From an uncultured Holophagales bacterium (GTDB taxonomy: Bacteria; Acidobacteriota; Thermoanaerobaculia; UBA5066): a DNA stretch of 47,873 nt. This document shows, in pieces, positions 2,105 through 45,434 of this stretch. The stretch is taken from positions 1 to 47,873 of the forward strand of contig CAYLNK010000009.1 of assembly GCA_964384675.1 (NCBI GenBank), given 5' to 3'. A program made the translations under genes and the position numbers. The notes beneath the pieces were generated by a model. It ran no database searches. It was not told where the DNA came from and saw nothing but the letters and a program-made list of their open reading frames with translations. Numbering within the stretch: position 1 is the first letter of the stretch; the number at the start of each line of letters is the position of its first letter.

Positions 2105-5100
2105 TTACTTCAGCTCACGCCACCACGTGGGCGTCAGGTGCGCCGGGGGCGGCTCCAGCTGGACGTCGGTGACGAGCTGGGTGTACGCGTGGTCACCGCT
2201 CTTCGAGATGATGACGTCCCCCTGCGGGGTGATCGAGAACCCGCCGCCGGCTCCTTCGCCACCGTCCGTCGACTCGACCGGCTCCGCCTGGACCTCGCAG
2301 TCCACGGAGGTGAAGGTCAGCTTCACGACGTATGTCCGCCCGAGGCAGCCGTTGTCCGGGTCGAACACCAGGAAGAGCGCGTCGGACGTGCCGATGCCCG
2401 AGCGCGGCACGACGATGAACGGAGACGCGATGACCTGGGTGTGCTGTCCCAGGTTGCCCGCGCCGGCCGGATCCCCTGCCGGGCGCGGAATGTCGCGCAG
2501 GCGGACCCGGAACATGCCCGGATCCGACGGGCTGCTGTCCATGGGCGAGACGCCCTTGGGCTTGACGGCGAGATAGAGGCTCGGCTGGAAGTACTGGTCG
2601 CTGTCGTCGCCGATCTGCGACCCGGACACGGCGTCGCTCTCCTCGTAGAACGAACCGCTCCCGAACGTGAAGAGATCGCAGCCCGAGCCCCTCGGACCGT
2701 AGCCGCTGACGGCGGTCGTGTAGTAGAGCGGCTGGGACTGTCCCACGAACTTCGAGGCGTCGATGCCGACGACGAAGGTGTCGAACGCCGCGGGCGCGCT
2801 CGAGGAGACGAACCAGATCCGTCCGTTCAGGTCCGGGACGAGGCCCAGATCGGCCTTGTTGTCCGGGAGGAAGGACGGAGCGTCGGTATCGAGGAACCCC
2901 GCGTGCGCCACGGCCTGGTTACCGACCCACGGCGGGTTCGTCGCGTCGTTCGTGGTGTTGTGGGGAGCGCTCGGGGTCTGGAACGTGCCATCGGTCACGT
3001 CCAGCACGAACGCCTTCGGCGCGACGGGCGTGGAAACGGTGCTGGCCGGATTCTCTCCGCCCCCGAAGACCATCCGCCACTTGTCGGCTGTGACCGGCGC
3101 GACGCCCGGAATGCTCCACGTCTCGAACACGTTCGCGATCCCGTCGGTGGCCGTGGCGCCGTCGAGAGTCCAGAGGACCTTCACCGGCTCGGCCGGGCTC
3201 GTGACGGCGCCGTCGAACGTGCCGTAGCTCGGGTCGGTGGGCGACGGGTGGGTGATGTCGATCGCCGCGATCAGCCTCCCGGCAGGCCCCTCGGTGATGA
3301 TGCCGACGGTCTTGTAGGTCGGCTCGGGCAGCGCGTTCGGGAAGTAGACGTCGAGGTAGCGGAGCGAGCTCGCCACCCCGTAGACGTGGTTGGTGAAGCC
3401 GGACAGCTGTCCCGTCGGGCTGTCGGCGGCGTTGATCAGGTAGTTCTGGTAGAAGGTGATCTGCCGGGCCAGGAGGTTCGGCGGCAGGAGGGCGGTGATC
3501 TCGCTCCCGTCCTCCGCGTTGAAGCAGTGCAGCATGCCGTCGTCGGAGCCGACCCAGACCACCGGCTTGCGCTGGGAGTAGGCGGCCTCGAATCCGGCGT
3601 GGTTCTGAACGGAGAGGTTGGAGTAGCGAGTCGGCGGCGTCACGACCGCGGGGGTCGAGTTGATGATGCCTCCCAGCATCCACTCGCGCCGGGCGCCCTG
3701 GGCCAGCGCGCTGGTACCGGAGCCGTCGTTGCCCAGGATGAAGTCGATCACTCCCGGGGTGAAGGTGCCCGCGGGCGAGCTGGTCAGGACGTCGAGCGCG
3801 TTCCTCGTCGCGGCCGAGTAGTCGATCTTGATCAGGGCCCCGCTCGAGGGGTTCCAGGTGTAGATCTTGCGAGTGGCGGGATCCGTGGACCGGAGGACCT
3901 GACCCGCGTCCCACTTCTCGTACAGCGGGTCGGACGGGAGCCTCGAGACGTCGAGAGCGTAGAAGTGTCCCTTCCACTCGGGGTAGTCGACCGACGAGAG
4001 GTACTGGGTGTTCTGCTGGCCGTCGATCGTCCCGCCGCTGACCGGCGCGGTCGTGACGTAGTCACCGGCGGCTCCGGCGTCGGCGATCTTCTTGAGAGCG
4101 GCGGCCAGGGAGTCCGGGTCGTTCGCGAAGATCGCGTAGTTGCCGTGGTTCGCGGTGCCGTACTCGAAGGTGTTGGGCGGGAGGTAGCTGCCGGCGTTCG
4201 TGATCCCGAAGTCGGCGAGCGCGGCGTCGGTGCGCCCCCGGTACGCGATGCGGTTCAGCTCGCACGGCCCGACGATGTCGCTGATGCCGATGACGAACGT
4301 GCGCACGCGAAGGGCCGGATCCGGCAGCAGCGGGACGCCACGCTGGAGCTGGAGGTCCCAGGCCAGATCGGCGGACCCGGCGCCGAACTGGGTGTAGTTG
4401 TTGTTCGGGATGGCGCTCGGGTCGGCGTCGGAGCAGTTGAATCCGCTCGCGGGCGGCACCGCGCCCGCGCCGTCGCAGCAGGCCCCGAAGACGGGGTTCA
4501 CGGTGTAGCCGGTACACGGCAACGAGGCCGGCGCCGGGTCGCCCAGCGCGTCCACGCACTCGGCGAAGCAGAGCGCATCCGGGTAGCGGTGGGTACAGTC
4601 GGCGAACCACGCGCCGTCGTTGGGGTTACAGGTGTTCGAGAGACCATCGGTGATCAGGACCGTGCCGTAGCCGCGGTTGCACTTGTAGAGCGGATCGACG
4701 TCGAAGATGTCCTGATGGGACTGGAGCGCGAGGTCGAGCGCCGACTTGGTCGGCGTCCAGCCCGATGGCGTCAGTCCTCCGCTGGCCGAGAGCTGCAGAT
4801 AGCCTTCGATCGCGGTCACGTCGTGGTTGTCCACCGGCTGGATGTTGTCCCGGATGTCCACGAGCTGCTGGACGTTCGCATACTGGCACTTGATGGCCTC
4901 GGCCGCGGTGTACGGGACCGGAAGCGTCGTGCCGTAGGTGATGAGGCCCCAGTTCACCGAGAACCGCGTCTGGCCGACGACGTCCTTCGGAGCCGAGACC
5001 GTGAAGGTCCCCAGGACGGGCTGGCCAACGCTGCAGCCGGCGTCGCTCACACCGCAGGCCTGGAAGGGGATGCCCGGATCCTCCAGGTAGTTGTCGGGTC

Positions 5101-7018
5101 CGGCCTCCAGCGTGTAGACCCACGTATCGACCGTCCCGACCGAGTTGGTGGCGGTGGTGATCACGACTCGCGGGAAGGTGACGTCGCTGGCCGTCGGGGG
5201 TGAGCTGGGCGGGAAGACGCCGCCGGCCACCGTCCAGGCGGCGGTGAGGAGCGGGCTGTTGGTGATGATGTCGGGAGCCACGTACTCGGGGATGATCGCG
5301 ACGGAGTTCCCCATCGCGTTCTTGGCCGAGGCCATGCGCGACGGGAGGTCGAACTTGAGGGTGTAGCTCCACTTGTTGAAGCCGGTGAAGCCGGGGACGA
5401 GCGGATCGGCGTCGCAGTCCTCGTGGGGCTCCTGCGGCAGGGCGGCGCCCATCGCCGGCTCCTGATGGCCGGAGGCGCCCGGATCCGCGAGCGGCGCGGG
5501 CGATGCCTCGGAAACCCGTCCGGGCCGGAAAGGCGGAACCTCGGTGGGCGTCCGGGTCGGCGTCCGCGTCCGTGTCGACGTGGGCGTGACCGTCGCGGTC
5601 GCCGTCGGCGTCCGCGTGCTCGTCGGCGTCGGCGTGATCGTCGGCGTCTGGGTGGGCGTGCTGGTGTTCGGCGGCGTGGCCGTCGGCGTGAGCGTCGGCG
5701 TCGACGTGAACGTATGGGTCGGCGTCCGCGTTATGGTCGGCGTCACCGTCGGCGTGTTCGTGTTGGGCGGCGGCGTCGTCGTCGGGGTCCGCGTCGGCGT
5801 CGAGGTCGGCGTGAACGTGAACGTGGCCGTGGGCGAGATCGTCGGCGTCTGAGTCGGCGTGCGCGTCGGCGTCCGCGTGAACGTGGACGTCGGGGTGCGC
5901 GTCGGCGTGATCGTCGGCGTGTTCGTCACGGTCGGCGAGATCGTCGGCGTCTGGGTCGCGGTCCGCGTGGGTGTCCGGGTCGGCGTGCGCGTCGGGGTCT
6001 GGGTGACCGTGAACGTCGGCGTGATCGTGGCGGTCGGGGAGATGGTCGGCGTCCGGGTGGCGGTGCGCGTCGGCGTGCGCGTCGGCGTCGACGTCGGGGT
6101 GAACGTCAGGGTGAAGGTGGGCGTGATCGTCGGCGTGGGTGTGATGGTCGGCGTGCGGGTCGGTGTGCGCGTCGGCGTCCGGGTGGGCGTGGCCGTCGGG
6201 GTGAACGTCGGGGTGAACGTCGGCGTGATCGTGGCCGTCGGCGAGATCGTCGGCGTGCGGGTGGGCGTACGGGTCGGCGTCCGGGTGGGCGTCTGAGTCG
6301 ACGTCGGGGAGATCGTTGCCGTGGACGTCGGCGTCACCGTCGGCGTCACCGTGAACGTGGCGGTTGCGGTCGCCGTCGGTGTGCGCGTCGGCGTGGCGGT
6401 CCCGGTCGTCGTCGGTGTGCTCGTCGGCGTCACCGTGGGCGACGCCGTGGGCGTCCTCGTCGGCGTGGACGTCTGCGTGGCGGTCGGCGTGGACGTCGCG
6501 GTGGACGTCGGCGTCACGGTCGGCGTGCTCGTGGAGGTCGGCGTCTGGGTCGGGGTCGTCGTGGGCGTCGTCGTGGGGGAATTCGTGGGCGTCGTCGTGG
6601 GCGTGCTCGTCGGCGTCGTCGTCGGCGTCGCGGTGGGGGTCTCGGTCGGTGTCTCGGTCGGCGTGGACGTGGGAGTGACCGTCGGGGTCTCGGTCGGCGT
6701 GAAGGTCGGCGTTGCCGTGGGCGTCTCGGTGGGCGTCGGCGTCGGGCCGGGGTTGGCGTCGGCGCAGGACCGCGACCAGCTCAGGAGGCCGGTCGAGTCG
6801 GCGCCGTGGACCAGCCGGGTCCCGTACTTGTCGAGGGCCATCGAGCCGCTCAGGTCGAGCACGATGATCAGGTTCTGCGGGATCTGGAGGCGCGAGATCT
6901 GGCGGAGCGGGTCGAGCCCCTCGGCCTCGGCCGTCGGCGTGACGGGCCCGACCGGCCCGAGCCCGAACAGGACGGCGGTGAAGAAGGCGACGCTCTTGCG
7001 CAGGATTGCGTTTCTCAT
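2105..7018 (-). CDS. pilY1: PilY1/PilC-family pilus tip adhesin (about 1637 aa): signal peptide, split VWA domain carrying a huge Thr-Pro repeat and an inserted beta-rich domain, and a C-terminal PilY1 beta-propeller domain
   Basis: Signal peptide [20 protein letters not shown]. The VWA beta1/MIDAS motif [10 protein letters not shown] is later completed by ...[11 protein letters not shown]...VLITDGLSN. The C-terminal region has the PilY1/PilC signature [21 protein letters not shown] and [14 protein letters not shown] at 7018 (M6 of the track ORF) with a GAGGG SD; the track start at 7033 is a GTG. Sits directly after the pilX-like gene, the canonical position. Confidence 0.8.
5534..6751 (-). 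repeat. About 1.2 kb tandem repeat (period 12 nt = 4 codons, with a higher-order unit of about 36 codons) encoding roughly 100 T-P-T-x units of the PilY1-like protein
   Basis: Plus strand reads gtcggcgtg / gtcggcgtc / ggcgtgcgc... repeated. In the PilY1 frame this gives [18 protein letters not shown]...[25 protein letters not shown]... over residues about 95-500. The other two frames give VGVRVGV (antisense) and HADRDAD artefact ORFs. Confidence 0.85.
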
Positions 7019-7029
7019 GATCGGCGCCC

Positions 7030-7683
7030 TCACTTCGCGATACTCCCGGTCGAGCCCGGGTCACAGTCGGCCTGGAGACAGGCCGGAATCGACTCGTTGG
7101 TGAGCTCGAGCTGCTCCTCGAGCACGCGGGTCACGGCGTTCTGCCCGTTCACGAGGACACTCCCCACCGCGATCAGGTTCACCTTGTTGTCACCGTCCGA
7201 GCCCGGGTCGGGCACGCCGGAGGGAGACAGGGCCCCGCGATCTTCCACGTTGTTGCGGATGTAGAGGGAGTACTGGGCCCTCAGGTAGAAGGCGCTGCCC
7301 GAGTCGGCGGACGCCTGGAGCCGCGGAACGTCCCGGTTCAGGTACGTGATCGATCCGACCCGGAACGACTTGGCCTGGGCACCGCCGCCCGGAGGGTTGA
7401 ACACCCCCGATGGTGCCGAGGCGCCGAGGAGCGTGCTGATCGGATTCCCGGCCCGCGAGTAGTTGGCCAGGACCTCCTCTCCCGTCCGGAGGCCGGTCTC
7501 CGCGGCGTAGAAGCTCGTCTTGGCCAGCCGGTCGTTGCCCGAGATCCGGTCTTCCACCTGCGTGAAATAGGCGATCCCGATCCCGACCACGGTCAGGATC
7601 AGGACGACGAGGATGACCGTGATGAGGGCGCTCCCTCGAGCGGGGGTTCTGCGACGGCGGCGCGGGGCCCGGCTGGCAGTCAT
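7030..7683 (-). CDS. PilX/GspK-like minor pilin (pseudopilin lacking Glu5)
   Basis: ATG at 7681-7683. N-terminus [17 protein letters not shown]|[35 protein letters not shown] has a prepilin-like leader and hydrophobic helix without the conserved E5, as in PilX/GspK. A 6-nt gap separates it from pilW-like; 11 nt separate it from pilY1. Confidence 0.6.
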
Positions 7684-7689
7684 GGCAGA

Positions 7690-8967
7690 TCAGCTCCCAA
7701 GGACTCGGTTGCGGAACAGCAAGGTGGTGGTGAGGCGGTAATACTCGTAGAGCGGGTCGCCTGCCGCGGGGACCGCACCGGCGGCGTGATCCTCGACGGC
7801 GGGGCGAAAGTGGTTGGCCAGGGCACGAGCGCCCGCACCGGAGGCGAGCGACCGCGCCGCGATGGTCAGCCGCGGCGAACGGGCGACGACCGTGACGCGG
7901 AGCCCGATGACGAATTGGGCGTCACGCGTGGCGTCGAACGGCGTGGCCGAGGAGCTGCACGTACCGGTGGTCAACCCCTGGCACGGGCCAGCTTGCGGAG
8001 GGATGCCCCCGGTGAAACCGGCATCGGCGAGCCGGTTCGTCCCGGAGTTCCCGACCGTGCCGTTCGCGTAGAGGTACGCCACCTGCAAGTCGACGATGTT
8101 CTCCACGATCGGGACGAAGTTCGTCCCCGGCGCGTCGACGTCGGCGTCGAAGATCCCGAGCTTCTGCTCGAGGTTCCCGTTGCGGACCCGGAACGACACG
8201 TACTGGACCCCAGCCGCGAGCGTGACCGGGGCGACGAGAGCCAGCTCCCCGTTCGGGGCTATCCCCTTCCACTCCGAGACCCCGAGGTCGAACTTCACGC
8301 CGGTGATGTAGTTCGTCGCCCCGCCCGAGATCGTGCAGTCGCTCGCGCCGTAGTCGGTGATCTGGAAGTACTGCCAGTTCCCCTTGTTGTCGATGAGGGT
8401 CAGGAGCCCCGACTGCTCGGTGGCACCCACGGTGTGAGCCCCCGTGAGCTGCTTGAAGAGCTCCATGTTGGTGCTCGGGCAGCCGGCGGAAAAGTTGACG
8501 GCGTGGCCCCCCGCCGCGTGCTTGTCGCCCCCGAGCGTGATCACCACCTTCAGGGGGTTCTCGGAGACGGAGAGCGAGACGATGTCGGTCCCCAGGTCGG
8601 CCAGGCTGCTGCTGGAGACGTCGTTGTAGGACCCCTGCTTCAGGACGTTCGGCGTGGCCTCGTTCGCCCCGTACCAGCAGATGAGGGCATTGGGGTTGTT
8701 CACCCCGGGCGAGACGTTTCGGACGGCCCGCACGTAGTTCAGGTCCGCCGCTCCCTGGACGTTGAACGTCAGGTAGTCGACCGCCCGGCGCGCCGCCTGG
8801 CGAGGCATCGTGACCATCTGCTGGCGCTCGGCGAACGCCTTCATCTGGAAGAGGAGCGTCAACGCCACGATCATCACCAGCACCAGGAGGGCCAGCGAGA
8901 CCGTGGCCTCCATCAGGGAGAAGCCCCTGCGATCGTCAGATCGGCGACGTGAGAATGCGCGCGACAT
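7690..8967 (-). CDS. PilW/GspJ-like minor pilin
   Basis: MSRAFSRRRSDDRRG|FSLMEATVSLALLVLVMIVALTLLFQ carries the classic prepilin motif G/FxLxE. 425 aa. Lies between the PilV-like and PilX-like genes in canonical fimU-pilVWXY1 order. Confidence 0.6.
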   Translation of the reverse strand: MSRAFSRRRSDDRRGFSLMEATVSLALLVLVMIVALTLLFQMKAFAERQQMVTMPRQAARRAVDYLTFNVQGAADLNYVRAVRNVSPGVNNPNALICWYGANEATPNVLKQGSYNDVSSSSLADLGTDIVSLSVSENPLKVVITLGGDKHAAGGHAVNFSAGCPSTNMELFKQLTGAHTVGATEQSGLLTLIDNKGNWQYFQITDYGASDCTISGGATNYITGVKFDLGVSEWKGIAPNGELALVAPVTLAAGVQYVSFRVRNGNLEQKLGIFDADVDAPGTNFVPIVENIVDLQVAYLYANGTVGNSGTNRLADAGFTGGIPPQAGPCQGLTTGTCSSSATPFDATRDAQFVIGLRVTVVARSPRLTIAARSLASGAGARALANHFRPAVEDHAAGAVPAAGDPLYEYYRLTTTLLFRNRVLGS

Positions 8968-9547
8968 AGTCGATCCTCTTGGCGTTGAGCGTGAATTCGC
9001 CGGGGGTGACCTGCCGTTGGCTGAAGTAGCGCCGGGCGGTCGTGGACGTGGACGCCTCTACGGTGACCGTGACGATCACGGACTCGTCCGAGCTCGAGGT
9101 CGCGGCAGCGTTCCGGATGTTGAACCGGATCTGATACGGACCGTCGTCGATCTCCATGACGTTCGCGCCGGCCGGGCCCCAGAAGGCCCAGGCGGTGGCA
9201 TCCGCCGCCGCGTTGTCGGGAAGCACGAAATCGGTGTCGGGAGGCGCCCCCCCGGGCGAGAGCGGCAGGGGGATCCCGCAGCCCGACGGGGGGACGAAGT
9301 TGTAGTCGAAGACGGCCGAGGCGCGGTACATGCCGTAGACGATCCGGATGTTCTCCACCACCTGCTGGGCCTTGAACGTCATCTGCGTGCGGGCCGCCGC
9401 GCCGGCGTTCACGACGAGGGAGAGCGAGTACATCTCGAGGATCCCGACCATCAGGAGGGCCAGCACCGTCATGGCGATCAGGACCTCGATCAGGCTGCTC
9501 CCCCGAGCTCGACGCGGCCTGCGCAGGGACCTTCTGAGCTGCTTCAT
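8936..9547 (-). CDS. PilV/GspI-like minor pilin
   Basis: MKQLRRSLRRPRRARG|SSLIEVLIAMTVLALLMVGILE prepilin motif. ATG at 9545-9547 with a GGGAGAG SD. 203 aa. Confidence 0.65.
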   Translation of the reverse strand: MKQLRRSLRRPRRARGSSLIEVLIAMTVLALLMVGILEMYSLSLVVNAGAAARTQMTFKAQQVVENIRIVYGMYRASAVFDYNFVPPSGCGIPLPLSPGGAPPDTDFVLPDNAAADATAWAFWGPAGANVMEIDDGPYQIRFNIRNAAATSSSDESVIVTVTVEASTSTTARRYFSQRQVTPGEFTLNAKRIDYVARILTSPI

Positions 9548-9560
9548 CTTCTCTCCCTGC

Positions 9561-10172
9561 CTAGTACAGCGACCTGTTGGCCTGGACGCTCCAGACCGGG
9601 CTGACCCGGACCTGGAGCAGGACGGGAGGCTTCAGCGCGGGGTTCGAGCCCACCATCCGGGTGTGGGTGAGGCTCAGCGTGGCGATTCCGGCGATCTGGC
9701 CGGCGGCCGAGGCGAAGGTCCGGGTTCTCAGGTCACAGCCGAGCCAACGCACCGTCGAGGCCGACGTGCCGTTGGCGGACCAGAATGCCGACTGCACCTC
9801 TCCGGCGTTCGTCGTGGAGAAGGCGATGTCGCCGGGCAGAGTCAGCGTCTGGATCACCGCGTCGGTCGAGGTGTCGGGTACGTTGTCCTGGTTCGTGTCC
9901 GCCACGAGCTGGAACTGGCGGGCCGCGCCGTCGAAGACCACGAAGATCGAGGTCCCCCGGGTCTGCATCTCGGAAGGGGCACGCGACATCAGGGTCGTCA
10001 GGTCGGAAGCCGCGGACGCGAGGCGCTGCTTCTGGATCGCCTTGAGGCCCTCGACCGAGGCGATCACGAAGGTCAGGCCGAGGACCAGCACCACAGCCAG
10101 GAGCTCGATCATGCTGAAGCCGCGCCGTCCGGAGCGCCGCCCAACCGCCGAAACCCGTGCCCTGACCGTCAC
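9561..10172 (-). CDS. FimT/FimU/GspH-like minor pilin
   Basis: The prepilin motif RRG|FSMIELLAVVLVLGLTFVIA lies about 72 aa into the track ORF (9561..10340). An internal GTG near 10172, preceded by GGGAGG, gives a 16-aa leader, so that start is preferred. First gene of the minor-pilin operon. Confidence 0.55.
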   Translation of the reverse strand: MTVRARVSAVGRRSGRRGFSMIELLAVVLVLGLTFVIASVEGLKAIQKQRLASAASDLTTLMSRAPSEMQTRGTSIFVVFDGAARQFQLVADTNQDNVPDTSTDAVIQTLTLPGDIAFSTTNAGEVQSAFWSANGTSASTVRWLGCDLRTRTFASAAGQIAGIATLSLTHTRMVGSNPALKPPVLLQVRVSPVWSVQANRSLY

Positions 10173-10204
10173 GCGTGGAATCCTCCCTTGCCACGGGCGA
10201 CAAA

Positions 10205-10218
10205 GCCATTCTCGTGCC
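10205..10218 (-). promoter_or_regulatory. Candidate σ54-type (-24/-12-like) promoter cGGCAC-gagaa-TGGC about 29 nt upstream of the FimT-like start
   Basis: The reverse-complement strand reads GGCACGAGAATGGC with GG-N10-GC spacing as in σ54 promoters. Related CGGCAC-N5-TTGA elements sit at the same distance upstream of both major pilin genes. Sequence-only call. Confidence 0.25.
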
Positions 10219-10224
10219 GCCGCG

Positions 10225-10247
10225 ATTGGCCCGATGGCAAGGCCAAT
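10225..10247. promoter_or_regulatory. Inverted repeat ATTGGCC-N9-GGCCAAT in the divergent minor-pilin / pilT control region; candidate regulator binding site
   Basis: Read from the sequence (attggcccgatggcaaggccaat). Lies in the 243-bp divergent intergenic region. Confidence 0.3.
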
Positions 10248-10308
10248 TGGATCAATACCTTGGCGTGGTTTCGCGATCTGCGACCCTGTCTCGGCCCCGG
10301 AGTCGATC

Positions 10309-10323
10309 GTTACGATTCGTAAC
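10309..10323. promoter_or_regulatory. Near-perfect 15-bp palindrome GTTACGA-t-TCGTAAC; candidate operator upstream of the HEAT-pilT gene
   Basis: Read from the sequence. AT-rich relative to the genome, about 95 nt upstream of the 10415 start. Confidence 0.3.
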
Positions 10324-10414
10324 ACGTCTCGTTCGCTCACGGCGATGCTCCCTTCGTTCCGGCCACGGTGATTCGGCTACGATTATCCTCTTCCCGGATC
10401 CGAGGAGGTCGAGC

Positions 10415-12934
10415 GTGGTCCTAGACAAGCTCCGGAAGGGACTGAGAGCCGAGCCCCCCGTCGTCGCGGCCCTGCGGGCCCACCAGTGGTCCTCGGAGGG
10501 TCAGAAACGCGACCTGATCCAGAAGTTCAAGCTGGCCCCGGACCTGGAGATCGACGAGGTCGTCTGGACCGCGCTCGACCAGACGGCCGAGATCCGCGAG
10601 GCCGGGATCGAGGTCCTGAAGCGGCGACCCGACCCGCACGCCGTCCTCGAGGCGCTGGTCCCTCTCCTCCGGACCCGCTCCGAGGCCGCTCGCCGGGCCG
10701 TGCAGCGGTTCCTCCAGGAGGTGGCCGGGGACCAGCTGGGCCCGTTCCTCTCCCAGCAGTGCGAGGAGGGGGACGACTTCGGCCGGCTCGCCGCCGTGGA
10801 GCTCGCCAAGAGCCTGCCCGGCGACGGCGCCATCTCGATCTACAAGCGGCTGGTGCGGGACCCGAACCTGGGGATCCGCCGCCGGGCGCTGAAGGCCCTC
10901 AGCGAATCGACTCTCCCCGGCGCCGCCGCGCTCGCCTCGAACATGGCGGTCAAGCTGCTCGAGGACGAGGACGAGGAGATCCGGCTCGCCGCGCTCGCGC
11001 TGCTGGAGAAGAACCCCGACGAGGCTCACATCGGCTCGATCCTGCAGCTCGCCGCGGCGGGCGCCGGGCGGATCGCGGACGCGGCGTTCTCGGCCCTGCG
11101 GCGCCTCCTGCCGCTCTCCAAGGCGGACCACACCAACGACATCCTGCCTCTCCTCGCCAGCGGCAGCGCCAGCGTCCGTACCGGAGCCCTCTCGCTCCTG
11201 GAGCGGACCCCGCCCGACCCCCTCGCCCGGGCGTTCGTCGAGCAGTTCAACGGCTCCTTCGTCTGGGTCCGCGACCGGGCGCTCGAGACCCTGAACCGCG
11301 CGTTCCCGACCTTCCTCCCGGCGCTCCTGCGCCTGACGGCGGATCCGGACCGGAAGGTCGCCGGCGGAGCCGCGGAGCTCGCGCTCATCGCTCCCGACCC
11401 ACGAGCCCTGCCGGTCTGGATGAACCTGCTCGACAACCCGGACTGGTGGATCAGGAGCCGCGCGCTCGAGAGCCTCGGCAAGTACGGCGCGGGCCGGGAC
11501 GACGTCTACCAGAAGCTGGCGGGGGCCCTGCGCGTGCCCGAGCTGACCCTCTCGGCGGCGTCCGCGCTCGGTGAGTTCGGCGACCCCCGGGGCCTGCAGC
11601 CGTTGGGACAGGCGTTCCAGGCGGCGATGGCCGCACCCGACGAGCAGCTCGAGATCCTCGACTCCATGGCCAAGCTCGGCGCGAAGGACCCGAGGGTGGG
11701 TGCCTACCTCGGGAACGTCTCCAAGCACCCGTCGTTCGACGAGAGAGTCCGCGAGAGGGCGCGTGACCTGGTGGGCCGGCTCCAGGGCGCCGCGGCGATG
11801 GCCGCCATCCCCTCGGTCGCGTCGAGCCCGCAGCGGCTCGACCTGGCCAACGTCGAGAACGCCAGGCTGGTCGACTTCCTCGCGGACACCGTCGCCAAGG
11901 GCGCGTCCGACTTCCACCTGGCCACCGGTTTCGCTCCCCACCAGCGGATCAACGGCGCGCTGACCTCCCTCGACGTGCCCGGATTCTCACGGGAGCGGTC
12001 GCGCCAGCTGCTCAAGCAGGTCCTGACCGACGAAGAGTGGCGCCGGCTCGAGCAGGATCGGCAGCTCGACATCTGCCTGAAGGTGGCCGGGCTGGGGCGC
12101 TTCCGGGCGAACCTCTTCTCTCAACGGAGCGGCTTCGACGCGTCCTTCCGCGTCATCCCGCACTCGCTCCCGACGCTGTCCGAGCTCGGGCTGCCCCAAT
12201 CCGCCTGGGAGCTGACCCGGTACACGCAGGGGCTCGTCCTGGTGACCGGCCCGGCCGGCTGCGGCAAGTCGACCACGCTCGCGACGCTGCTCGACCGCGT
12301 GAACGAGACACGGCGCGGCCACATCATCACGGTCGAGGACCCCGTCGAGTTCGTGCACGTGAACAAGGAATCCCTGGTGAACCAGCGGCAGGTGCCCCAG
12401 CACACGAAGTCGTTCGCCCGGGCCCTGAAGGCCGCGCTCCGCGAGGACCCGGACGTCATCATGATCGGCGAGATGCGCGACCTCGAGACGATCTCGCTCG
12501 CGATCTCCGCGTCGGAGACGGGGCACCTCGTCTTCGGCACCCTCCACACGACGACCGCGACCGGCACGATCGACCGCGTGATCAACGCCTTCCCGGCCGG
12601 CCAGCAGGGACAGATCCGCGCCATGATCGCCGACTCGCTGAAGGCGGTCATCTCGCAGGCTCTGCTCCCGAGGCGGGGCGGAGGCGGGCGCGTGGCGGCG
12701 TTCGAGATCCTGCGCGGCACGCAGAACGTCGCCGCTCTCATCCGCGAGGCGAAGACCCACCAGCTGCCGTCCGCGCTCCAGACGGGACAGCTCGCCGGAA
12801 TGGTCACGATGGACCAGGCGCTGATCCGGCTCGCCGAGGACGGCAAGGTCGACCTCGAGGCCGCGTACGACCGGGCCCTGAAGAAGGAGCCCTTCGAGAA
12901 GCTGCTCAACGAGGAAAGGCAGGCCCTGGCATGA
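10415..12934 (+). CDS. PilT/PilU-family twitching-motility ATPase with an N-terminal HEAT-repeat extension of about 480 aa
   Basis: C-terminal half has Walker A GPAGCGKST, Asp box VIMIGEMRD, His box GHLVFGTLHTTTA and the PilT signature AALIREAK. The N-terminal half shows repeated HEAT/PBS-lyase-like units (PDPHAVLEALVPLL, DPNLGIRRRALKAL, DEEIRLAALALL, NPDWWIRSRALESL). Start chosen at GTG 10415, 6 nt after GAGGAGG; the track start at 10175 lacks an SD. Confidence 0.8.
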   Translation: MVLDKLRKGLRAEPPVVAALRAHQWSSEGQKRDLIQKFKLAPDLEIDEVVWTALDQTAEIREAGIEVLKRRPDPHAVLEALVPLLRTRSEAARRAVQRFLQEVAGDQLGPFLSQQCEEGDDFGRLAAVELAKSLPGDGAISIYKRLVRDPNLGIRRRALKALSESTLPGAAALASNMAVKLLEDEDEEIRLAALALLEKNPDEAHIGSILQLAAAGAGRIADAAFSALRRLLPLSKADHTNDILPLLASGSASVRTGALSLLERTPPDPLARAFVEQFNGSFVWVRDRALETLNRAFPTFLPALLRLTADPDRKVAGGAAELALIAPDPRALPVWMNLLDNPDWWIRSRALESLGKYGAGRDDVYQKLAGALRVPELTLSAASALGEFGDPRGLQPLGQAFQAAMAAPDEQLEILDSMAKLGAKDPRVGAYLGNVSKHPSFDERVRERARDLVGRLQGAAAMAAIPSVASSPQRLDLANVENARLVDFLADTVAKGASDFHLATGFAPHQRINGALTSLDVPGFSRERSRQLLKQVLTDEEWRRLEQDRQLDICLKVAGLGRFRANLFSQRSGFDASFRVIPHSLPTLSELGLPQSAWELTRYTQGLVLVTGPAGCGKSTTLATLLDRVNETRRGHIITVEDPVEFVHVNKESLVNQRQVPQHTKSFARALKAALREDPDVIMIGEMRDLETISLAISASETGHLVFGTLHTTTATGTIDRVINAFPAGQQGQIRAMIADSLKAVISQALLPRRGGGGRVAAFEILRGTQNVAALIREAKTHQLPSALQTGQLAGMVTMDQALIRLAEDGKVDLEAAYDRALKKEPFEKLLNEERQALA

Positions 12935-14049
12935 GCGCCGGCGCACCGACACCCCAGGCCTCCGAAGCCCGTCGCATCGACGCCCTCCTGCGTCTCGTCC
13001 TCGAGAAGAAGGCCTCGGACCTCCACCTCGCCGTCGGCTCGCCGCCGATGATCCGCGTCGACGGCGAGCTCGAGCGGGTGAAGTGGCGCACCCTCACCGA
13101 GGAGGAGTTCGTGAACCTGATCGGCCCGATCGCGCCCCCGAAGCTGTTCGCGGCGTGGCGGGAGACGGGCGACACGGATTTCGCCTACGCGATGGGCAAC
13201 CGCGCCCGCTTCCGCGTCAACGTCTTCAAGCAGGAGCACGGGCCCGCCGCCGTCCTCCGGATGATCCCGCCCCGCGTGCTGACGATCGAGGAGCTCGGCA
13301 CGCCGCCCCAGGTGGCGAGCGTCGCGAAGGTGCCGCGCGGCCTCGTCCTGGTCACCGGGCCCACCGGCTCGGGGAAGTCGACCACGCTCGCGGCTCTCCT
13401 GGACTGGGTGAACCGGACTCGCGCGTTTCACATCGTGACGATCGAGGACCCGGTGGAGTTCCTCCACGTCTCCCAGAAGTCGATCATGACGCACCGCGAG
13501 GTCGGCTTCGACACGATGTCGTTCTCGGAGGCGCTGAAAGCGGCGCTGCGCGAGGACCCGGACGTCGTCCTCGTCGGCGAGCTGCGCGACCTCGAGACCA
13601 TGACCAACGCGCTCCAGGCCGCGGAGACCGGCCTCCTGGTCTTCGGCACGCTTCACACGAACTCGGCGTCCAAGGCGATCGACCGCCTCATCGACGGCTT
13701 CCCGTCCGAGGAGCAGGACCAGACGCGGACGGTGCTGGCCGAGGTGCTGAAGGCGGTCGTGGCCCAGGTCCTCCTGAAGAAGAAGGGAGGCGGCCGCATC
13801 CCGGCCTTCGAGGTGCTCCGGGGCTCGCCGGCCCTGTCGAACGCGATCCGGGAGGGGAAGACTTCCATGATCACCACCCTGATCCAGACGGGGAAGTCCC
13901 AGGGGATGATCTCCATGGACCAGTCGCTCGCCGACCTCGTGGTGAACGACATCGTCGACATCGAGGAGGCGTTCGACAAGGCGCTCGAGAAGGACGCCTT
14001 CCGGGCCCTCGTGGAGAAGAGGCGCGCGGCGGCGAACGCCGCCACCTGA
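12931..14049 (+). CDS. pilT: Type IV pilus retraction ATPase PilT (372 aa)
   Basis: ATG at 12931 overlaps the upstream TGA (ATGA). Walker A GPTGSGKST, DVVLVGELRD, GLLVFGTLHTNSA, AIREGK. The track ORF 12037..14049 carries a spurious N-terminal extension in the same frame. Confidence 0.9.
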   Translation: MSAGAPTPQASEARRIDALLRLVLEKKASDLHLAVGSPPMIRVDGELERVKWRTLTEEEFVNLIGPIAPPKLFAAWRETGDTDFAYAMGNRARFRVNVFKQEHGPAAVLRMIPPRVLTIEELGTPPQVASVAKVPRGLVLVTGPTGSGKSTTLAALLDWVNRTRAFHIVTIEDPVEFLHVSQKSIMTHREVGFDTMSFSEALKAALREDPDVVLVGELRDLETMTNALQAAETGLLVFGTLHTNSASKAIDRLIDGFPSEEQDQTRTVLAEVLKAVVAQVLLKKKGGGRIPAFEVLRGSPALSNAIREGKTSMITTLIQTGKSQGMISMDQSLADLVVNDIVDIEEAFDKALEKDAFRALVEKRRAAANAAT

Positions 14050-14062
14050 GGCGGCGACCGGG

Positions 14063-15877
14063 TCACGCCACGGGGAGCGACAGGACGAACCGGGCCCCCG
14101 GAAGGACGCGGCCCCGCTCGACCGCCACCGAGCCACCGTGGAGCGCCGCGATCTTCGCGACGAGCGCGAGGCCGAGGCCGGTGCCCGTCTCCTTGGTCGA
14201 GGTGAACGGCACGAACAGCTTCGCCGTGACCTCGACGGGAACTCCCTGGCCGTCGTCCTCCACCGCGATCCGCGCCAGCCCGGCGGTCACACCTTCCCCC
14301 AGGACGACGACGCGGCCGCCGCCCCCTTCGGGGCCCGGATCTCCGGCGCCTGCGGCCGCCGCCTCTCGCGCGTTGCGCACCAGGTTCACGAGCGCCCGGC
14401 GCAGGAGCGCTCCGTCGCCCCGGACCACCGCGAACGTCCCGTCGGTGTCGAACGCGATCGCGGAGTCGGCCATCCGTTCCTCCTCCACGATCTCCCGCGC
14501 GAGGGGTCCGAGATCGACCGGACCGGGAGTGAACCGCCCGGGCCGCGCGAAGAACAGGAAGTCTCCGGTCACGGTCGCGATGTGGTCGGCCTCGGCGCGG
14601 ATGGCCGCGAGGTGCCGCGCCCGCGCCTTCGGGTCCTCGGTCGACGCGGCCAGGCGGGCCCAGCCCTGCAGGGTCGCGGTGGCGTTCCGGAACTCGTGCG
14701 CGATGCCGGCCGACATCTCGCCGAGGGCCGCGAGCTCCCGCCGTGCCGAGAGCTCCCTCTCCAGACGGCTCGTCCGGGTGCGGTCCTCGAGGAACACCAG
14801 CGTGCCGAGGGGCCGGTCGGCCGCATCGACGACCGGAGCCGCGGTGACGACGAGCCGGCGTCCGCTCGTCTCCTCCCCGAGGACGAACTCGCGACCGAGC
14901 GTGGCCTCTCCGCGGGAGGCGCCGTGCACCGCCCCCTCGAGGACCGGATAGGCGGCGAGCGCGCGCGCCGCGGCCCCGCCGACGGCCTCGGGCGGCAGAT
15001 CCAGGAGCCGCCGGGCCGGCTCGTTCGCCTGCGACAGCGCCCCGCCGGCGTCGATGACGAGGAGCCCGCCCGGGTGCGATCGGACCAGGGTCTCCGCCGT
15101 CACCGCCAGGGCGTCGGCCCGCTCCTTCTCACGGCGTCTCAAGTCGTCGAGCTCGGTGGTCCGCTTGCGCAGCTCCTCGATGGTGCGTGCGAACGTGGAG
15201 ATCGCGTGGTCCGCCTCGTCCCGCCCCGGCTCCTCCGGCAGGAGGCCCGAGGCGTCGCGGGCCGTCTCGGCGAGCGCCTCGATCGGGGAGAGGAGGCGCC
15301 GGAGGAACGGGATCACCAGGAGCCCGAGCGTGACGGCGGCGAGCGGCACGACGAAGGAGAGGATCCGGACGTTGCGCTCGGCCTCCGAGAGGAGCGAGCC
15401 GTCGTACCCGATGCGCAGGATCCGCGTCCCCCCGGCGAAGGACGCGGTGACGATCGCGAAGCCCGGCCCTCCCTCCGACGTCGCGCCGGCCGCCACGGTC
15501 TCACCGGGGAGCGGCACCTCGCCCGCGGAGAGCGTCTCCTCTCCCTGCGCGACGTCGGGCAGGAACGGCGCCTCGGCGAGACGGGCCCCTTCCGCGTCGT
15601 ACAGGCCGGCATGGCGGGCTCCCGCGTCGCGCAGGAGGGTCGCGACCCGGGCGTCGCCGCCGAGCGCGAAGGAGGCGTCGCCCGACAGGAGGAGGCGCTC
15701 GACGACGATCCGCGTCTCGGCGGAGAGCCGGGCCAGATGCTCCCGTTCGGCCCACGCCGTGACGTTCCGGAGGAGGACGAGGGTGAGGCCGGAAAGGAAC
15801 AGCAGGAAGAGCAGGCCTCCGACGACGATGTGCCGGACCTCGCGCTCGAAACGGCGGTCCCGGGGCCCGTCGCTCAC
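14063..15877 (-). CDS. Sensor histidine kinase: two TM helices flanking a periplasmic domain, HAMP/PAS-like region, HisKA and HATPase_c domains
   Basis: H-box GIAHEFRNATATL, N-box LVNLVRNAREAA, G-boxes DDGQGVP and GTGLGLALV. GTG start overlaps the pilD stop (GTGA). No response regulator gene is in the window. Confidence 0.85.
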   Translation of the reverse strand: MSDGPRDRRFEREVRHIVVGGLLFLLFLSGLTLVLLRNVTAWAEREHLARLSAETRIVVERLLLSGDASFALGGDARVATLLRDAGARHAGLYDAEGARLAEAPFLPDVAQGEETLSAGEVPLPGETVAAGATSEGGPGFAIVTASFAGGTRILRIGYDGSLLSEAERNVRILSFVVPLAAVTLGLLVIPFLRRLLSPIEALAETARDASGLLPEEPGRDEADHAISTFARTIEELRKRTTELDDLRRREKERADALAVTAETLVRSHPGGLLVIDAGGALSQANEPARRLLDLPPEAVGGAAARALAAYPVLEGAVHGASRGEATLGREFVLGEETSGRRLVVTAAPVVDAADRPLGTLVFLEDRTRTSRLERELSARRELAALGEMSAGIAHEFRNATATLQGWARLAASTEDPKARARHLAAIRAEADHIATVTGDFLFFARPGRFTPGPVDLGPLAREIVEEERMADSAIAFDTDGTFAVVRGDGALLRRALVNLVRNAREAAAAGAGDPGPEGGGGRVVVLGEGVTAGLARIAVEDDGQGVPVEVTAKLFVPFTSTKETGTGLGLALVAKIAALHGGSVAVERGRVLPGARFVLSLPVA

Positions 15878-17058
15878 GGCAGGAGGCGTGCTCCGGGAAC
15901 GGCGGGATCGCCGAGGAGGTAGGCGAGACAGAGCCGCCCCGTCGCGAAGGCAACCAGCGATCCCGCGGCGAGGAACACGCCGAAGGGAATGTCCGACCGT
16001 CCGACGAGGACGAGGATCCCGGACTCGAGCCTCTCGGCTCTCGCCGAGACGACGCGGAAGAAGTGGTCGCCTTCCTCCAGCATCAGGCGGTGGGACTCGG
16101 TGGCCGCTCCGAGCCGGGACCGCCGCTCGGCCAGACGGAGAAAGGCGACGAGCGGCCGGCCCGCCTTACCCGACGACCGGTACGGCGCGCCGACCCGGGC
16201 GGCTCCGGGGACGTCGCGCCAGACGGGGCCCGCGGCCTTCACGATCCCTCCGGCCACCAGGAGGCCCTCCCGCTCGGCGGCGGCTCGCGCCGCCGACGGG
16301 TCGCGGCCCGACGCGCGGAACCGCGACGCCCACCTCGCCCTCCGGGCCAGCAGGTAGGCACCTCCGCCGAGAGCCCCCGCCGCGGAGGCGAAGAGGAGGG
16401 TCAGGAGCACGCCGGCCGCCCCTCCGACGGCCCCGATCATCGCGATCATGTGGACGTCGCCCAGGCCCATCCCTTCCGCGGCGCGCAGCCACTCGTACGC
16501 CTTCCGAACCGCGAGGAGCAGGAGCGCCCCCAGCGCCGCGCCGCCGACCGACTCCACGAGATGGCTCGTCGACAGGGCGAGCGGCGCGCCGCCGGGCCGG
16601 AAGAGACTCGCCGCGTCCCTCGCCGCGGCGAGGAGGAGGCCGGCGGCGAGCACGCCGAGCGTGATCTCGTCGGGCAGGATCCGCGCCTCGAGATCGGTCG
16701 CCACCAGGACCACCGCGGCGAAGGAGAGGAGGCCGAAGGCGACGGCCGAAGGCGAGGGTCCGAAGAGGACGGCGCCCAGGAGGAAGAGGAGCGCCACGGT
16801 CAGCTCCACCAGGGGATAGCGGATCGAGATCGGCCGGCGACAGCGGCGGCAACGACCGCGCAGCACGAGCCACGACAGGACCGGGACGTTGTCGAGGGCG
16901 GCAATGGGATGCCCGCAGCCCGGGCAGCGGGAGCGCGGCCGGACCACCGACTCGCCTCGCGGGAGGCGGTGGATGCAGACGTTCGCGAAAGAGCCGAACA
17001 CGGCCCCGAACGCGAAGAACGAGACGCGAAGGACGAGTGTCACGCCGGGATCGATCAC
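15874..17058 (-). CDS. pilD: Prepilin peptidase / N-methyltransferase PilD (A24 family) with an about 110-aa insertion in a cytoplasmic loop
   Basis: N-terminus FGAVFGSFANVCIHRLP. Tetracysteine motif CPGCGHPI...CRRCRRPI. GLGDVHMIAMIGA. C-terminal IPFGVFLAAGSLVAF. GTG start overlaps the stop of the upstream YfhO-like gene. Confidence 0.85.
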   Translation of the reverse strand: MIDPGVTLVLRVSFFAFGAVFGSFANVCIHRLPRGESVVRPRSRCPGCGHPIAALDNVPVLSWLVLRGRCRRCRRPISIRYPLVELTVALLFLLGAVLFGPSPSAVAFGLLSFAAVVLVATDLEARILPDEITLGVLAAGLLLAAARDAASLFRPGGAPLALSTSHLVESVGGAALGALLLLAVRKAYEWLRAAEGMGLGDVHMIAMIGAVGGAAGVLLTLLFASAAGALGGGAYLLARRARWASRFRASGRDPSAARAAAEREGLLVAGGIVKAAGPVWRDVPGAARVGAPYRSSGKAGRPLVAFLRLAERRSRLGAATESHRLMLEEGDHFFRVVSARAERLESGILVLVGRSDIPFGVFLAAGSLVAFATGRLCLAYLLGDPAVPGARLLP

Positions 17059-19364
17059 GGCAGCCTCGGTTCCGGCCCGCCGGCCAGGAGGAGGCCCGCG
17101 AGGATCACGGCGGAGATGACCGAGAGGGCCGCACCGACACGGAAGGAGAGAGGACGGTACCGCAGCACCACCCGGTGCTCGCCGGCGGGAACGGTGAAGC
17201 CGATGAAGAAGAGGTCGGTCCGCACCGCACGCACCGGAAGGCCGTCCACCTCGACGCGCCAGCCCGGATCCCAGCTCCGGGTCAGGACGACCGACGCGGG
17301 CTCGGAGGACACGGTGGAGATCTCGGTCTCCTCCGCGAGGTCCCGGACGAAGCGCAGTGCCGAAAAGCCCTTGCCGCTGCGAGGCGGCGGGATCGGCCCC
17401 GGGTCATCGGCGAAGAGGGCCAAGTCCTCCGGGTCGAATCCGGGCCTCGTCAGCGCCGCGATCACGACCTCGTCCGCGGCGACCCTGCCGCCGCGGGCGA
17501 AGAACGCCCGGCCGAGCGGCCCGGCCAGGTTGTAGGCGTAGACGCCGGGCCCGCGCCCGGCGGGTCCGCGCGTGGAGCGTGGCGGCGGCGACGGCGACAC
17601 GACCAGGCGAGCGTCGCACAGACGGAGGATCGAGTCGGGGATACGTCCCGCGAGGGAGTCGTGGAGAAGAGCGAGCCGGAGCAGGCTCTGGAGGGGCGAT
17701 CCCGACGTCGCGGCCGGGATCCCGGCATCGAGGTTGGTGTAGCCGGCCAGGAGTACCCGTTCCTTGAGCGGTGTGGTCGGGGCCCAGGCCCCGCCCGGCA
17801 TCGCGTAGCCGACGACGGCCCGCGCGTCGAGCGTGTCCACGAGCAGCCGGCCCGGAGCGGAGCCGAACATCCGGCGCACCTCCTCGGTGGACGAGCGCAG
17901 CGCGGCCGCGGGCACCGCCTCGAGGGGGTCCCGGGCCGTGGCGGGCAGCGTGGCGACGAGGAGCGCCACTACCAAGTAACCGGTCGCCGGCGCGCCGAGC
18001 CCCGTCCTTCCCCGCAGCGCGAGGAGGAGGACCGCGGCACCGAGGGCCCCGAACGCGAGGCGGGCCCGGCCAGGGTCCCGATCCCGGAGCGACCCGAGCG
18101 CCGCGACCGCGAGCAGGACGACCACGCACACCGTCAGGCCGGCGCCGATCCAGGCTCGCCCCACCCAGGCTCGCTCCCGGGCGAACCCGTCGTCTTCCGG
18201 GCGCGCACAGACGCGAAACCGGCCATAGAGGAAACCGTCCAGACCGGCGCCGGCGGCCACGGCGAGGCCGAGATGCGTCAGCAGGAACCACCGACCCGGG
18301 AACCTGAGGCCTCGGAGCAGCCCGGTCCGGTACAGGAGAGGAGCGAGCGCTCCCCGGGACCCGAGCGCGAGGAGGAGGCCGATCACCGCGAGGCCGAGGA
18401 GACCCAGGAGCAGGCGCGGGCGGCCCGGGAATCCCGCGGCCGCGCCCGCCACGAGCAGGAGGGCCAGCGGACCGAGCGCGAGCGAGGCGAGGTAGCCCCC
18501 CCGCTCGCCCGCCGGGGTTCGTGTGGCCGCCGGCGTCGGAGGCGCGACGAGGTCGGCGAGCGCGCCCGATCCGACGGGACGGGCCATCGCCTCCTCGGGC
18601 GAGGCATTCGAGATCCGGCCCGTCCTCACCACGAGCTCGAGAAACGGAAGCGACGCCGCGGCGGTGAGGGCGAACGCCAGACCGAGCCCGAGGGCGGCTC
18701 TCGCGGCGGCCCGGCCCGGACGGATCGAAGGAACGCCCGTGCCCTCGGACCAGGTCAGGGCCGCGAGACCCAGGGCCGCCGCGGCCCCCGCGAGCGCCAC
18801 GCTGGGCTCACCCGCCAGGAACGCGAGGGCGACAGGAAGGGCGAACCCGGCCAGCCCACCGCCCGACACCAGCCGGCGCGCCCCGACGAAGATCCAGGGC
18901 AGCCACGCCGCCGCGCAGGCGTTGTTGTAGTAGGGGAAGAGAGAGAGGAACGCGCCGGCACCCGCGTAGACCACGCCGCCCGCGAGCGACGCCGGGCGCG
19001 AAGATCCCAGGCTGTCGAGCCAGCGGGCCATCCCCGCCGAGGCGAACGCGAGATGGAGCGTGATCGCGAGGAGAGCGCCCCATGGCATCCCGAGGAGGAA
19101 GGGCAAGTCCCCCGGATAGAGCACACCGGACTGGAGCTGGGCCAGCCAGGGCTCGCCGCAGCCGGCCAGGGGGTTCCAGAGGGGGATCTCGCCAGCGGCC
19201 CAACGCGCGGCGGTGTACGCCTTCATCGGCCAGAAGAAATCGGGCAGGTCGCCACGAGCTGGGATCCGTGCGCTCCAGGCCGCCGGACCACCCGAGATCG
19301 CGCCCACCAGGACGCCGAGGAGTCCTCCGAACGCCGTGACACGTCCCGGCGACTCCCCGCTCAT
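17055..19364 (-). CDS. YfhO-family polytopic membrane protein (predicted GT-C glycosyltransferase)
   Basis: 769 aa with more than 12 predicted TM helices. N-terminal motif FFWPMKAYTAARWAAGEIPLWNPLAGCGEPW. C-terminal YfhO-like WDPGWRVEVDGLPVRAVRTDLFFIGFTVPAGEHRVVLRYRPLSF followed by a final TM. Co-transcribed with pilD. Confidence 0.65.
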   Translation of the reverse strand: MSGESPGRVTAFGGLLGVLVGAISGGPAAWSARIPARGDLPDFFWPMKAYTAARWAAGEIPLWNPLAGCGEPWLAQLQSGVLYPGDLPFLLGMPWGALLAITLHLAFASAGMARWLDSLGSSRPASLAGGVVYAGAGAFLSLFPYYNNACAAAWLPWIFVGARRLVSGGGLAGFALPVALAFLAGEPSVALAGAAAALGLAALTWSEGTGVPSIRPGRAAARAALGLGLAFALTAAASLPFLELVVRTGRISNASPEEAMARPVGSGALADLVAPPTPAATRTPAGERGGYLASLALGPLALLLVAGAAAGFPGRPRLLLGLLGLAVIGLLLALGSRGALAPLLYRTGLLRGLRFPGRWFLLTHLGLAVAAGAGLDGFLYGRFRVCARPEDDGFARERAWVGRAWIGAGLTVCVVVLLAVAALGSLRDRDPGRARLAFGALGAAVLLLALRGRTGLGAPATGYLVVALLVATLPATARDPLEAVPAAALRSSTEEVRRMFGSAPGRLLVDTLDARAVVGYAMPGGAWAPTTPLKERVLLAGYTNLDAGIPAATSGSPLQSLLRLALLHDSLAGRIPDSILRLCDARLVVSPSPPPRSTRGPAGRGPGVYAYNLAGPLGRAFFARGGRVAADEVVIAALTRPGFDPEDLALFADDPGPIPPPRSGKGFSALRFVRDLAEETEISTVSSEPASVVLTRSWDPGWRVEVDGLPVRAVRTDLFFIGFTVPAGEHRVVLRYRPLSFRVGAALSVISAVILAGLLLAGGPEPRLP

Positions 19365-19945: not shown

Positions 19946-19969
19946 GTAGATAGCCTCCTTGACTGCGAG

Positions 19970-19986
19970 CATTCAAGAGCGGTGCC
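19970..19986 (-). promoter_or_regulatory. Candidate σ54-like promoter cGGCAC-cgctc-TTGAa about 27 nt upstream of the pilin-1 ATG
   Basis: The same CGGCAC-N5-TTGA element is found 29 nt upstream of pilin-2 (about 20650-20663). It matches the σ54 -24 box (TGGCAC) but the -12 reads TTGA rather than TTGC, so the call is tentative. Confidence 0.3.
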
Positions 19987-44049: not shown

Positions 44050-44079
44050 GGCGCGATCAGTGTATTGCAGACTAGACGG

Positions 44080-45369: not shown

Positions 45370-45434
45370 CCCGCACCGGGCCCGACCGCCCGGCCAAGGG
45401 GGGCTCGGGGGGACCGGACGCGGAGGTCCCCCCG

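Follow-up and report, generated by a model that had tools for sequence, protein, structure and literature searches.

We analysed a stretch of 47,873 nucleotides (nt) of DNA from an uncultured Holophagales bacterium (GenBank assembly GCA_964384675.1, contig CAYLNK010000009.1, forward strand; the whole stretch is here called the window) and focused on two neighbouring genes for PilT-family ATPases, the first of which encodes a PilT core preceded by a long array of HEAT repeats on the same polypeptide. This pair is probably the dual retraction motor of a type IVa pilus, with the HEAT part as its scaffold. The reading is built on the architecture of the fusion protein, its catalytic motifs, the conservation of the fusion, its co-occurrence with a second PilT, the existence of fused and split forms of the same module and the pilus genes that surround the pair. 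The motor family itself is known and the system does not amount to a new category; what had not been described before is its conserved accessory module.

The fusion gene lies at 10415–12934 on the + strand and encodes 839 amino acids (aa) plus a stop codon; the call is based on the open reading frame (ORF), on Pfam and TIGR01420 matches, on the G+C content of third codon positions (GC3) and on homologues. The G+C content of the window is about 70%, so that long ORFs occur in every frame. Even so, 10415–12934 is clearly a gene, because its GC3 is uniform, it has a GAGGAGG site and it has full-length homologues. The GC3 of its frame is 0.93–0.98 in each block of 120 codons, the HEAT half included. 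The Shine-Dalgarno-like GAGGAGG (10403–10409, + strand, read from the sequence) stands 5 nt before the start codon, a GTG at 10415. About 30 homologues of 825–840 aa, from separate assemblies, align from residue 1, and the identical 839-aa protein is also present among them (P0001). A preliminary description of this DNA had allowed that the true start might be a downstream Met yielding a PilT of normal length. The long homologues, the ribosome-binding site, the GC3 and the linker, in which the homologues have no conserved internal Met, together make that start very unlikely.

Three parts follow one another on the + strand in the fusion gene, namely a HEAT solenoid (10445–11809, aa 11–465), a flexible linker (11810–11866, aa 466–484) and a PilT-family ATPase core (11867–12931, aa 485–839). 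In the first part, Pfam HEAT_2 (PF13646) matches three stretches with 73 bits against a cutoff of 27.7 (E 1.8e-20). The core is matched by Pfam T2SSE at aa 488–752 (E 1e-45) and by the NCBIfam model TIGR01420 (pilT_fam, PilT/PilU family type 4a pilus ATPase) at aa 485–824, with 426.5 bits against a cutoff of 319.1 and coverage of model positions 2–341 of 343. Its Walker A (GPAGCGKST, aa 612–620), Asp box (EDPVE), Walker B (DVIMIGEMRD) and His box (GHLVFGTLHT) are intact, both His-box histidines (H704 and H711) being kept: ETGHLVFGTLHT. The C-terminal motif AIRNLIRE marks PilT. Here the fusion reads NVAALIREAK and the partner ALSNAIREGK; both retain the LIRE/IRE core and depart from the motif in the AIRN part.

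The models for extension ATPases fit the fusion far less well. The PilB equivalog TIGR02538 gives 142.9 bits against a cutoff of 675.65, and TIGR02533, a PilB/GspE-type equivalog, gives 140.9 bits against 630.25; in both cases the aligned part is the shared core only. In phmmer searches of the Protein Data Bank (PDB), the fusion core scores 331 bits to the PilT of Aquifex and 330 to P. aeruginosa PilT, versus 235 to P. aeruginosa PilU (9n32), and the partner scores 361 bits to PilT versus 231 to PilU. By these scores both ATPases belong to the PilT/PilU family and are PilT-like rather than PilU-like. The architectural claims of the preliminary description are all borne out: a complete PilT-type core with the motifs it quoted, including AALIREAK; no PilB-type N1 or zinc-finger region, the PilB insert being missing as well; HEAT repeats in front of the core, scoring above the gathering cutoff; and a fusion stop codon that overlaps the partner's ATG, as found at 12931–12934.

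The HEAT part belongs, on the profile matches, to the HEAT_2 repeat class and falls outside the NblB and CpcE families; the NblB equivalog NF045915 gives it 32.7 bits against a cutoff of 300. Pfam and NCBIfam searches found no ligand-binding or signalling domain in this N-domain. AlphaFold2, run on the family alignment, predicts aa 11–465 as an all-alpha solenoid with a predicted local distance difference test score (pLDDT) of 85–94. Modelled alone, the N-domain reaches a mean pLDDT of 91 and a predicted template modelling score of 0.75, and its 28 helices make up about 14 repeats. In both models the solenoid is joined to the N-domain of PilT by some 20 residues of coil (aa 466–484), where pLDDT falls; this stretch is poorly conserved in the family alignment. 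The fold of the N-domain resembles generic HEAT scaffolds only. With the full-length model Foldseek gave PilT structures only, and the core of that model is of low confidence. The family-invariant residues, R155, R190, R255, R286, R288, W345 and others, follow the HEAT_PBS repeat consensus. W284, R286, R288 and W345 were also considered as a ligand site, which was rejected since they match the HEAT_PBS/alphaRep repeat consensus.

The partner gene (12931–14049, + strand) encodes a PilT paralog of 372 aa plus a stop codon, with 435.1 bits to TIGR01420 and 46% identity to the fused core. Its start codon shares letters with the stop codon of the fusion in the ATGA overlap at 12931–12934 (+ strand). 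In the partner, the first His-box His is replaced by Leu235, whose codon is at 13633–13635 of the window, and the second (H242) is kept, so that its His box, without the first His, reads ETGLLVFGTLHT. Aligned with P. aeruginosa PilT, the partner has aaetgLlvfgtlht where PilT has aaetgHlvfgtlht. The same His is missing from the partner-type paralog in 11 of 11 fused loci (ETG[L/M/T/A]L in place of ETGHL) and is kept in 13 of 13 reference or generic PilTs. The preliminary description had called the partner a standard PilT; this does not strictly hold, since the first His-box His is replaced throughout the partner's clade. Mutants of P. aeruginosa PilT give an idea of the weight of these residues. 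H222A, at the equivalent site, makes retraction threefold slower with the same binding rates (10.1101/2020.02.12.946426), while with H229A twitching is lost and ATPase activity is reduced (PMC10187167).

Changes are also found in the fused cores of other members, where the second His, needed for twitching in P. aeruginosa, is lost in some sublineages. It is Ser in a Holophagales subgroup (P0011, P0013, P0015–P0017 and P0019) and, in another subclade, Asn in P0034, P0035, P0181, P0183, P0185, P0193, P0227 and P0321, and Gln in P0254. The fused core of P0262 has neither the Walker A Lys nor the Walker B Glu and is likely a pseudo-ATPase. Neither paralog of the window has a long C-terminal tail of the PilU type.

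A search with the N-domain returned about 35 clusters (90% identity) that combine HEAT and T2SSE, called, where named, ‘PilT/PilU family type 4a pilus ATPase [Thermoanaerobaculia bacterium]’. A scan of genome contigs with the N-domain, using single-protein patterns, returned two close Holophagales loci in metagenome-assembled genomes (MAGs). When HMMER was run exhaustively against 1.84 billion representatives, 19 proteins had E<1e-30 and 339 had E<1e-10; among the best 150 matches there were at least 25 clusters (50% identity) of 794–938 aa with a C-terminal PilT core. Judged from these matches, the fusion is a conserved family in MAGs of Acidobacteriota, its taxonomic distribution taking in Thermoanaerobaculia and Holophagales.

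We then compared 11 fused loci, namely the window, L001–L004, L006–L009, L014 and L015 (L005 is a second contig with the gene pair of L004). A PilT paralog stands behind the fusion in all 11, with the identical 4-bp overlap in nine of them; L015 has a 46-nt gap between fusion and partner instead of the overlap. At L014 (7001–11929) the fusion is 919 aa long, its N-terminus being extended by about 90 residues, and two more PilTs come after it, which makes three PilT-family ATPases in a row. The flanking pilus genes are kept in the close relatives L001, L006, L008 and L009 and are missing in the distant L004, L007 and L015. The conserved unit is the ATPase pair itself, because the second PilT persists where the pilus flanks do not. 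Among the close relatives, the divergent arrangement of PilX and minor-pilin genes is repeated in L001, L008 and L009, while L006 has only a PilX_N gene, upstream and on the same strand as the fusion. Synteny with a kinase and PilD is found in L001, L006 and L009, and L008 has the kinase without PilD.

Two apparent standalone PilTs, the closest of this kind to the fused core, were set aside. P0060 (351 aa) is an under-called annotation, as the ORF of L008 (4474–7056, GCA_050257975.1) is open through an in-frame HEAT region. P0063 (393 aa) comes from L009 (4755–7182), a nanopore-like assembly with the HEAT part upstream in another frame, owing to a frameshift or an assembly error. Some public annotations shorten the fusion gene to a plain PilT in this way. 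Separately, the PilT-family proteins P0051 (582 aa), P0104 (546 aa) and P0109 (544 aa) have N-terminal extensions of about 190–230 residues without a Pfam domain, and may be further undescribed PilT architectures.

The same HMMER pass found the HEAT part as a protein of its own, in at least 20 clusters of 478–497 aa that match the N-domain end to end and have no ATPase part. The NCBI name of such a protein, of about 485 aa, is ‘HEAT repeat domain-containing protein [Planctomycetota bacterium]’. In hhalign, the fusion (15–493) and the standalone protein (12–483) align over 469 colinear columns with a probability of 100% and E 5e-51. In all four loci examined, two PilT-family genes stand in tandem and the standalone gene follows directly 3' of them, at L010:6001–7452, L011:3739–5196, L012:8001–9437 and L013:8001–9461. 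The first PilT gene of L011 is split by the gene caller; TIGR01420 was run on the two PilTs of L010, and both pass. In the first Planctomycetota paralog the Glu before the His is changed (AA[A/S]TGH), and in the second the AIRNLIRE region is degenerate. These PilT-PilT-HEAT operons are not inside pilus gene clusters. At their C-terminus, behind 25–35 aa of variable linker, the standalone proteins share a conserved peptide, L-x-M-[E/V/A/Q]-N-x-x-L-N, which the fusions do not have and which looks like a short docking motif. The ‘LANVENARL’ of the window's linker was considered as a relic of this LxMENxxLN peptide and was rejected, not being conserved among the fusions.

As a result, one module, made up of at least two PilT-family genes in one operon and a HEAT part of about 470 aa that is either fused or encoded next to them, is present in the window, in 10 other fused loci and in four split loci. 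Because both fused and split forms exist, the HEAT part can be taken, in the manner of a Rosetta stone, as a dedicated and physical partner of the two-PilT motor, and the pattern argues that the HEAT module works physically with the PilT pair. A built-in scaffold had been suggested in the preliminary description; the idea is strengthened by the finding of the same HEAT module as a separate gene in PilT-PilT-HEAT operons. Of the docking partners that it named as examples, a cyclic di-GMP effector, a polar landmark and a clutch, none is favoured by the present results.

The relationship between the paralogs was examined in a neighbour-joining (NJ) tree on Kimura distances with 100 bootstraps. 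Only the partner clade is well supported, with monophyly in 98 of 100 bootstraps; all fused cores come together in 21 and the partner set (PAR) joins PLA1 in 29. The deep nodes among the fused cores, the partners and the two Planctomycetota paralogs are not settled by this tree, and the group-mean identities show no pairing of the Acidobacteriota paralogs with the Planctomycetota paralogs.

The neighbouring genes make the window a type IVa pilus accessory locus by their domain content. Divergent to the fusion lie a PilX-like gene and three minor-pilin genes (7030–10340, − strand; Pfam PilX_N and N_methyl). They adjoin, as in other type IVa pilus loci, a giant PilY1-like protein of 1642 aa (2105–7033, − strand), which matches the PilY1 beta-propeller weakly and below the cutoff (E 7.8e-5) and is probably a very divergent tip adhesin of the PilY1 type. 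On the other side, and convergent with the pair, is a PAS-HisKA-HATPase sensor kinase (14063–15877, − strand; Pfam). It is followed by the prepilin peptidase PilD (15874–17058, − strand; Pfam), a YfhO-like polytopic membrane protein (17055–19364, − strand) and a pilin with N_methyl and T2SSG-like matches (19454–19972, − strand; Pfam). A YfhO-like protein also lies between PilD and pilin in L001 (16280–18499) and L009 (10808–13015); that of L006 (16599–18965) follows PilD, with no pilin gene inside the fetched DNA. A role as a pilin glycosyltransferase is conceivable for this protein. A protein with ATP-grasp (IQCH-like) and PGM1_C is found near pilin genes in the window (23927–25459, + strand) and in L001 (19904–21463). 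The window also contains two large Ser/Thr protein kinases, one with AAA_16 and TPR (20650–23901, − strand) and one at 42712–45636 (− strand), apparently unrelated to the ATPase pair. A tblastn search of the core against the whole window returned the two ATPases only, with the next match at E 0.13, and Pfam scans of the other high-GC3 ORFs of the window found no PilB, PilC or PilMNOPQ. This agrees with the earlier count of two PilT-family ATPases and no extension ATPase, a count that holds for the 47.9-kb window and not genome-wide.

We propose that the motor has three parts on two polypeptides: PilT-a, which appears catalytically complete, the HEAT solenoid and PilT-b. The 14-repeat solenoid would be tethered to the N-terminus of PilT-a by the flexible linker of about 20 residues, and PilT-b, naturally without the first His-box His, would be made from the same mRNA by way of the ATGA overlap. 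The HEAT module may originally, or alternatively, be a separate subunit, whose tether is covalent in the Acidobacteriota lineage of the window. If PilT-a forms a hexamer, six HEAT arms would stand on its N-terminal face. PilT-a and PilT-b would be separate hexamers that act together, in retraction rather than extension, and the arms would be a protein-protein scaffold that either keeps the two paralogs joined or fixes the pair to some other part of the pilus base, these being the candidate binding partners. ATPases of the PilT family are hexameric motors of retraction. PilT and PilU are known as separate cooperating homohexamers (PMC6821130; PMC6762196), and modelling, genetics and tomography point to stacked PilC-PilT-PilU rings with the C-terminus of PilU on the N-face of PilT (10.1101/2025.10.30.685630; PMC13584747). 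A stacked dual motor is proposed here because of the analogy with this arrangement. As a speculation, the arms would be sterically easiest to place if PilT-a were the distal ring or if the arms embraced the other ring.

Several points weigh against this picture. Given the lost second His in some fused cores and P0262, the fused ATPase may be regulatory rather than a motor in some members. The analogy with PilT/PilU is functional only, as neither paralog has the PilU-typical C-terminal extension. The HEAT contacts are hypothetical, and the conserved Trp and Arg of the solenoid are repeat consensus, so that the sequence does not reveal a binding site. The fused and split architectures could have recruited their PilT pairs independently. 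Finally, PilB, PilC and PilMNOPQ were seen in none of the fetched loci, and for this reason it is the pilin, PilD and PilX genes nearby on which a complete type IVa pilus machine is assigned.

A bolder version of the dual-motor reading can be put forward only tentatively. In it, a distinct and undescribed class of dual-PilT motor, fused in Acidobacteriota and split in Planctomycetota, would be defined by HEAT as its third subunit; HEAT would physically couple the two PilT hexamers, or the pair to the pilus platform, and so take the role that the C-terminal tail of PilU has in PilT/PilU systems; the partner's altered His box would set another speed and give a two-gear retraction.

Clearly less probable than a structural bridge is a role of the HEAT arm in regulation or localisation, in which it would dock a signalling protein (such as a cyclic di-GMP effector or a polarity factor) or auto-inhibit the fused ATPase and so gate the time and place of retraction. 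HEAT solenoids are generic protein-docking surfaces, and a PAS sensor kinase is a conserved neighbour. Moreover, the lost catalytic histidines in some fused cores and the one pseudo-ATPase suggest that the fused subunit can be non-motor, and the distant fused loci and the Planctomycetota operons are outside pilus clusters. However, the searches of the N-domain gave no ligand-binding or signalling domain, its strict co-occurrence is with a second PilT and not with a regulator, and the protein of the window has all catalytic motifs.

We consider it unlikely that PilT-a and PilT-b form mixed heterohexamers, with HEAT setting their stoichiometry or geometry and translational coupling giving equimolar production. 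The 4-bp overlap in 9 of 11 loci would suit such an assembly, as would the partly complementary His-box changes, the partner having lost the first His and some fused cores the second. But the paralogs are only about 46% identical, the PilT and PilU that have been studied are homohexamers (PMC6821130), and the fused core of the window has both histidines and needs no complementation.

It is very unlikely that HEAT-PilT is an extension motor in which HEAT plays the role of the PilB N1 domain and docks PilM or PilC. The N-terminal extension recalls those of PilB, GspE and PilF, and no PilB is present in the window or in any fetched locus; however, pilB is usually encoded elsewhere, together with pilC. 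The core is PilT by descent (426 bits to pilT_fam, 143 to PilB with its cutoff of 676); its LIRE motif is of the PilT type, and the PilB insert is absent. We know of no PilT-clade ATPase that is a dedicated extension motor. For the MSHA pilus of V. cholerae, PilT has been reported to promote extension as well as retraction (PMC9815625). Like the extension reading, the idea that the fusion is an artefact, from adjacent genes merged by assembly or frameshift or from a missed internal Met start, is poorly supported and indeed hardly credible, since the 351-aa annotation of P0060 and the shifted frame of L009 are outweighed by an uninterrupted frame in the window and in about 30 separate assemblies, by the open L008 ORF that makes the 351-aa call an under-call, and by the uniform GC3, the good ribosome-binding site at the long start and the lack of a conserved internal Met.

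The cooperation of paired retraction ATPases is an active question, and stacked PilT-PilU models date from 2025–2026. The module offers a natural experiment, in which the same scaffold is fused in one phylum and free in another, each time with two PilT paralogs and with natural changes at residues that set retraction speed. The triad in its fused and split forms, together with the His-box variants, is directly testable and relevant to motor coordination. If the binding partner of the HEAT arm were found, a new means of assembling or controlling one of the strongest molecular motors known would come to light. Such a finding would also offer a first functional handle on the pili of Acidobacteriota and Planctomycetota; both phyla are abundant in the environment, and their surface motility and DNA uptake have, to our knowledge, hardly been studied. 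Literature searches combining HEAT with PilT or retraction ATPase gave no paper on a HEAT domain or protein associated with PilT, and public annotations name these proteins just ‘PilT’ or ‘HEAT repeat protein’.

Among the closest known systems is the PilT/PilU tandem of P. aeruginosa, V. cholerae, Neisseria and M. xanthus, in which two PilT-family paralogs likewise lie side by side and are co-transcribed, within or close to pilus loci. Neither paralog of the window is PilU-like, however, both having higher bit scores to solved PilT than to solved PilU, and neither has the long C-terminal tail. One of them carries a 465-residue HEAT solenoid, which is in no described PilT or PilU, and the unfused one is without the first His-box His. 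M. xanthus has in addition a conserved tandem pair of extra PilT paralogs, MXAN_6705/MXAN_6706, one of which has a longer N-terminus (PMC13584747); the extension of MXAN_6705 is described as intrinsically disordered, not HEAT (PMC13584747). The N1 domain of PilB/GspE, the triplicated GSPII domain of Thermus PilF and the cyclic di-GMP-binding N-domain of MshE are likewise accessory N-terminal domains on hexameric motors of the T2SSE family, serving machine docking or ligand control, but there the motors serve extension or secretion and the added domains have GSPII/N1 folds, whereas the protein of the window combines the PilT clade with a HEAT solenoid. CpcE/F, NblB, YibA and the synthetic alphaRep are alike in fold only, and the protein of the window has no bilin context. 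The standalone HEAT protein of Planctomycetota MAGs is homologous to and colinear with the N-domain of the fusion and accompanies two PilT paralogs in the four loci examined; it differs in being a separate polypeptide, encoded 3' of the ATPases and ending in LxMxNxxLN.

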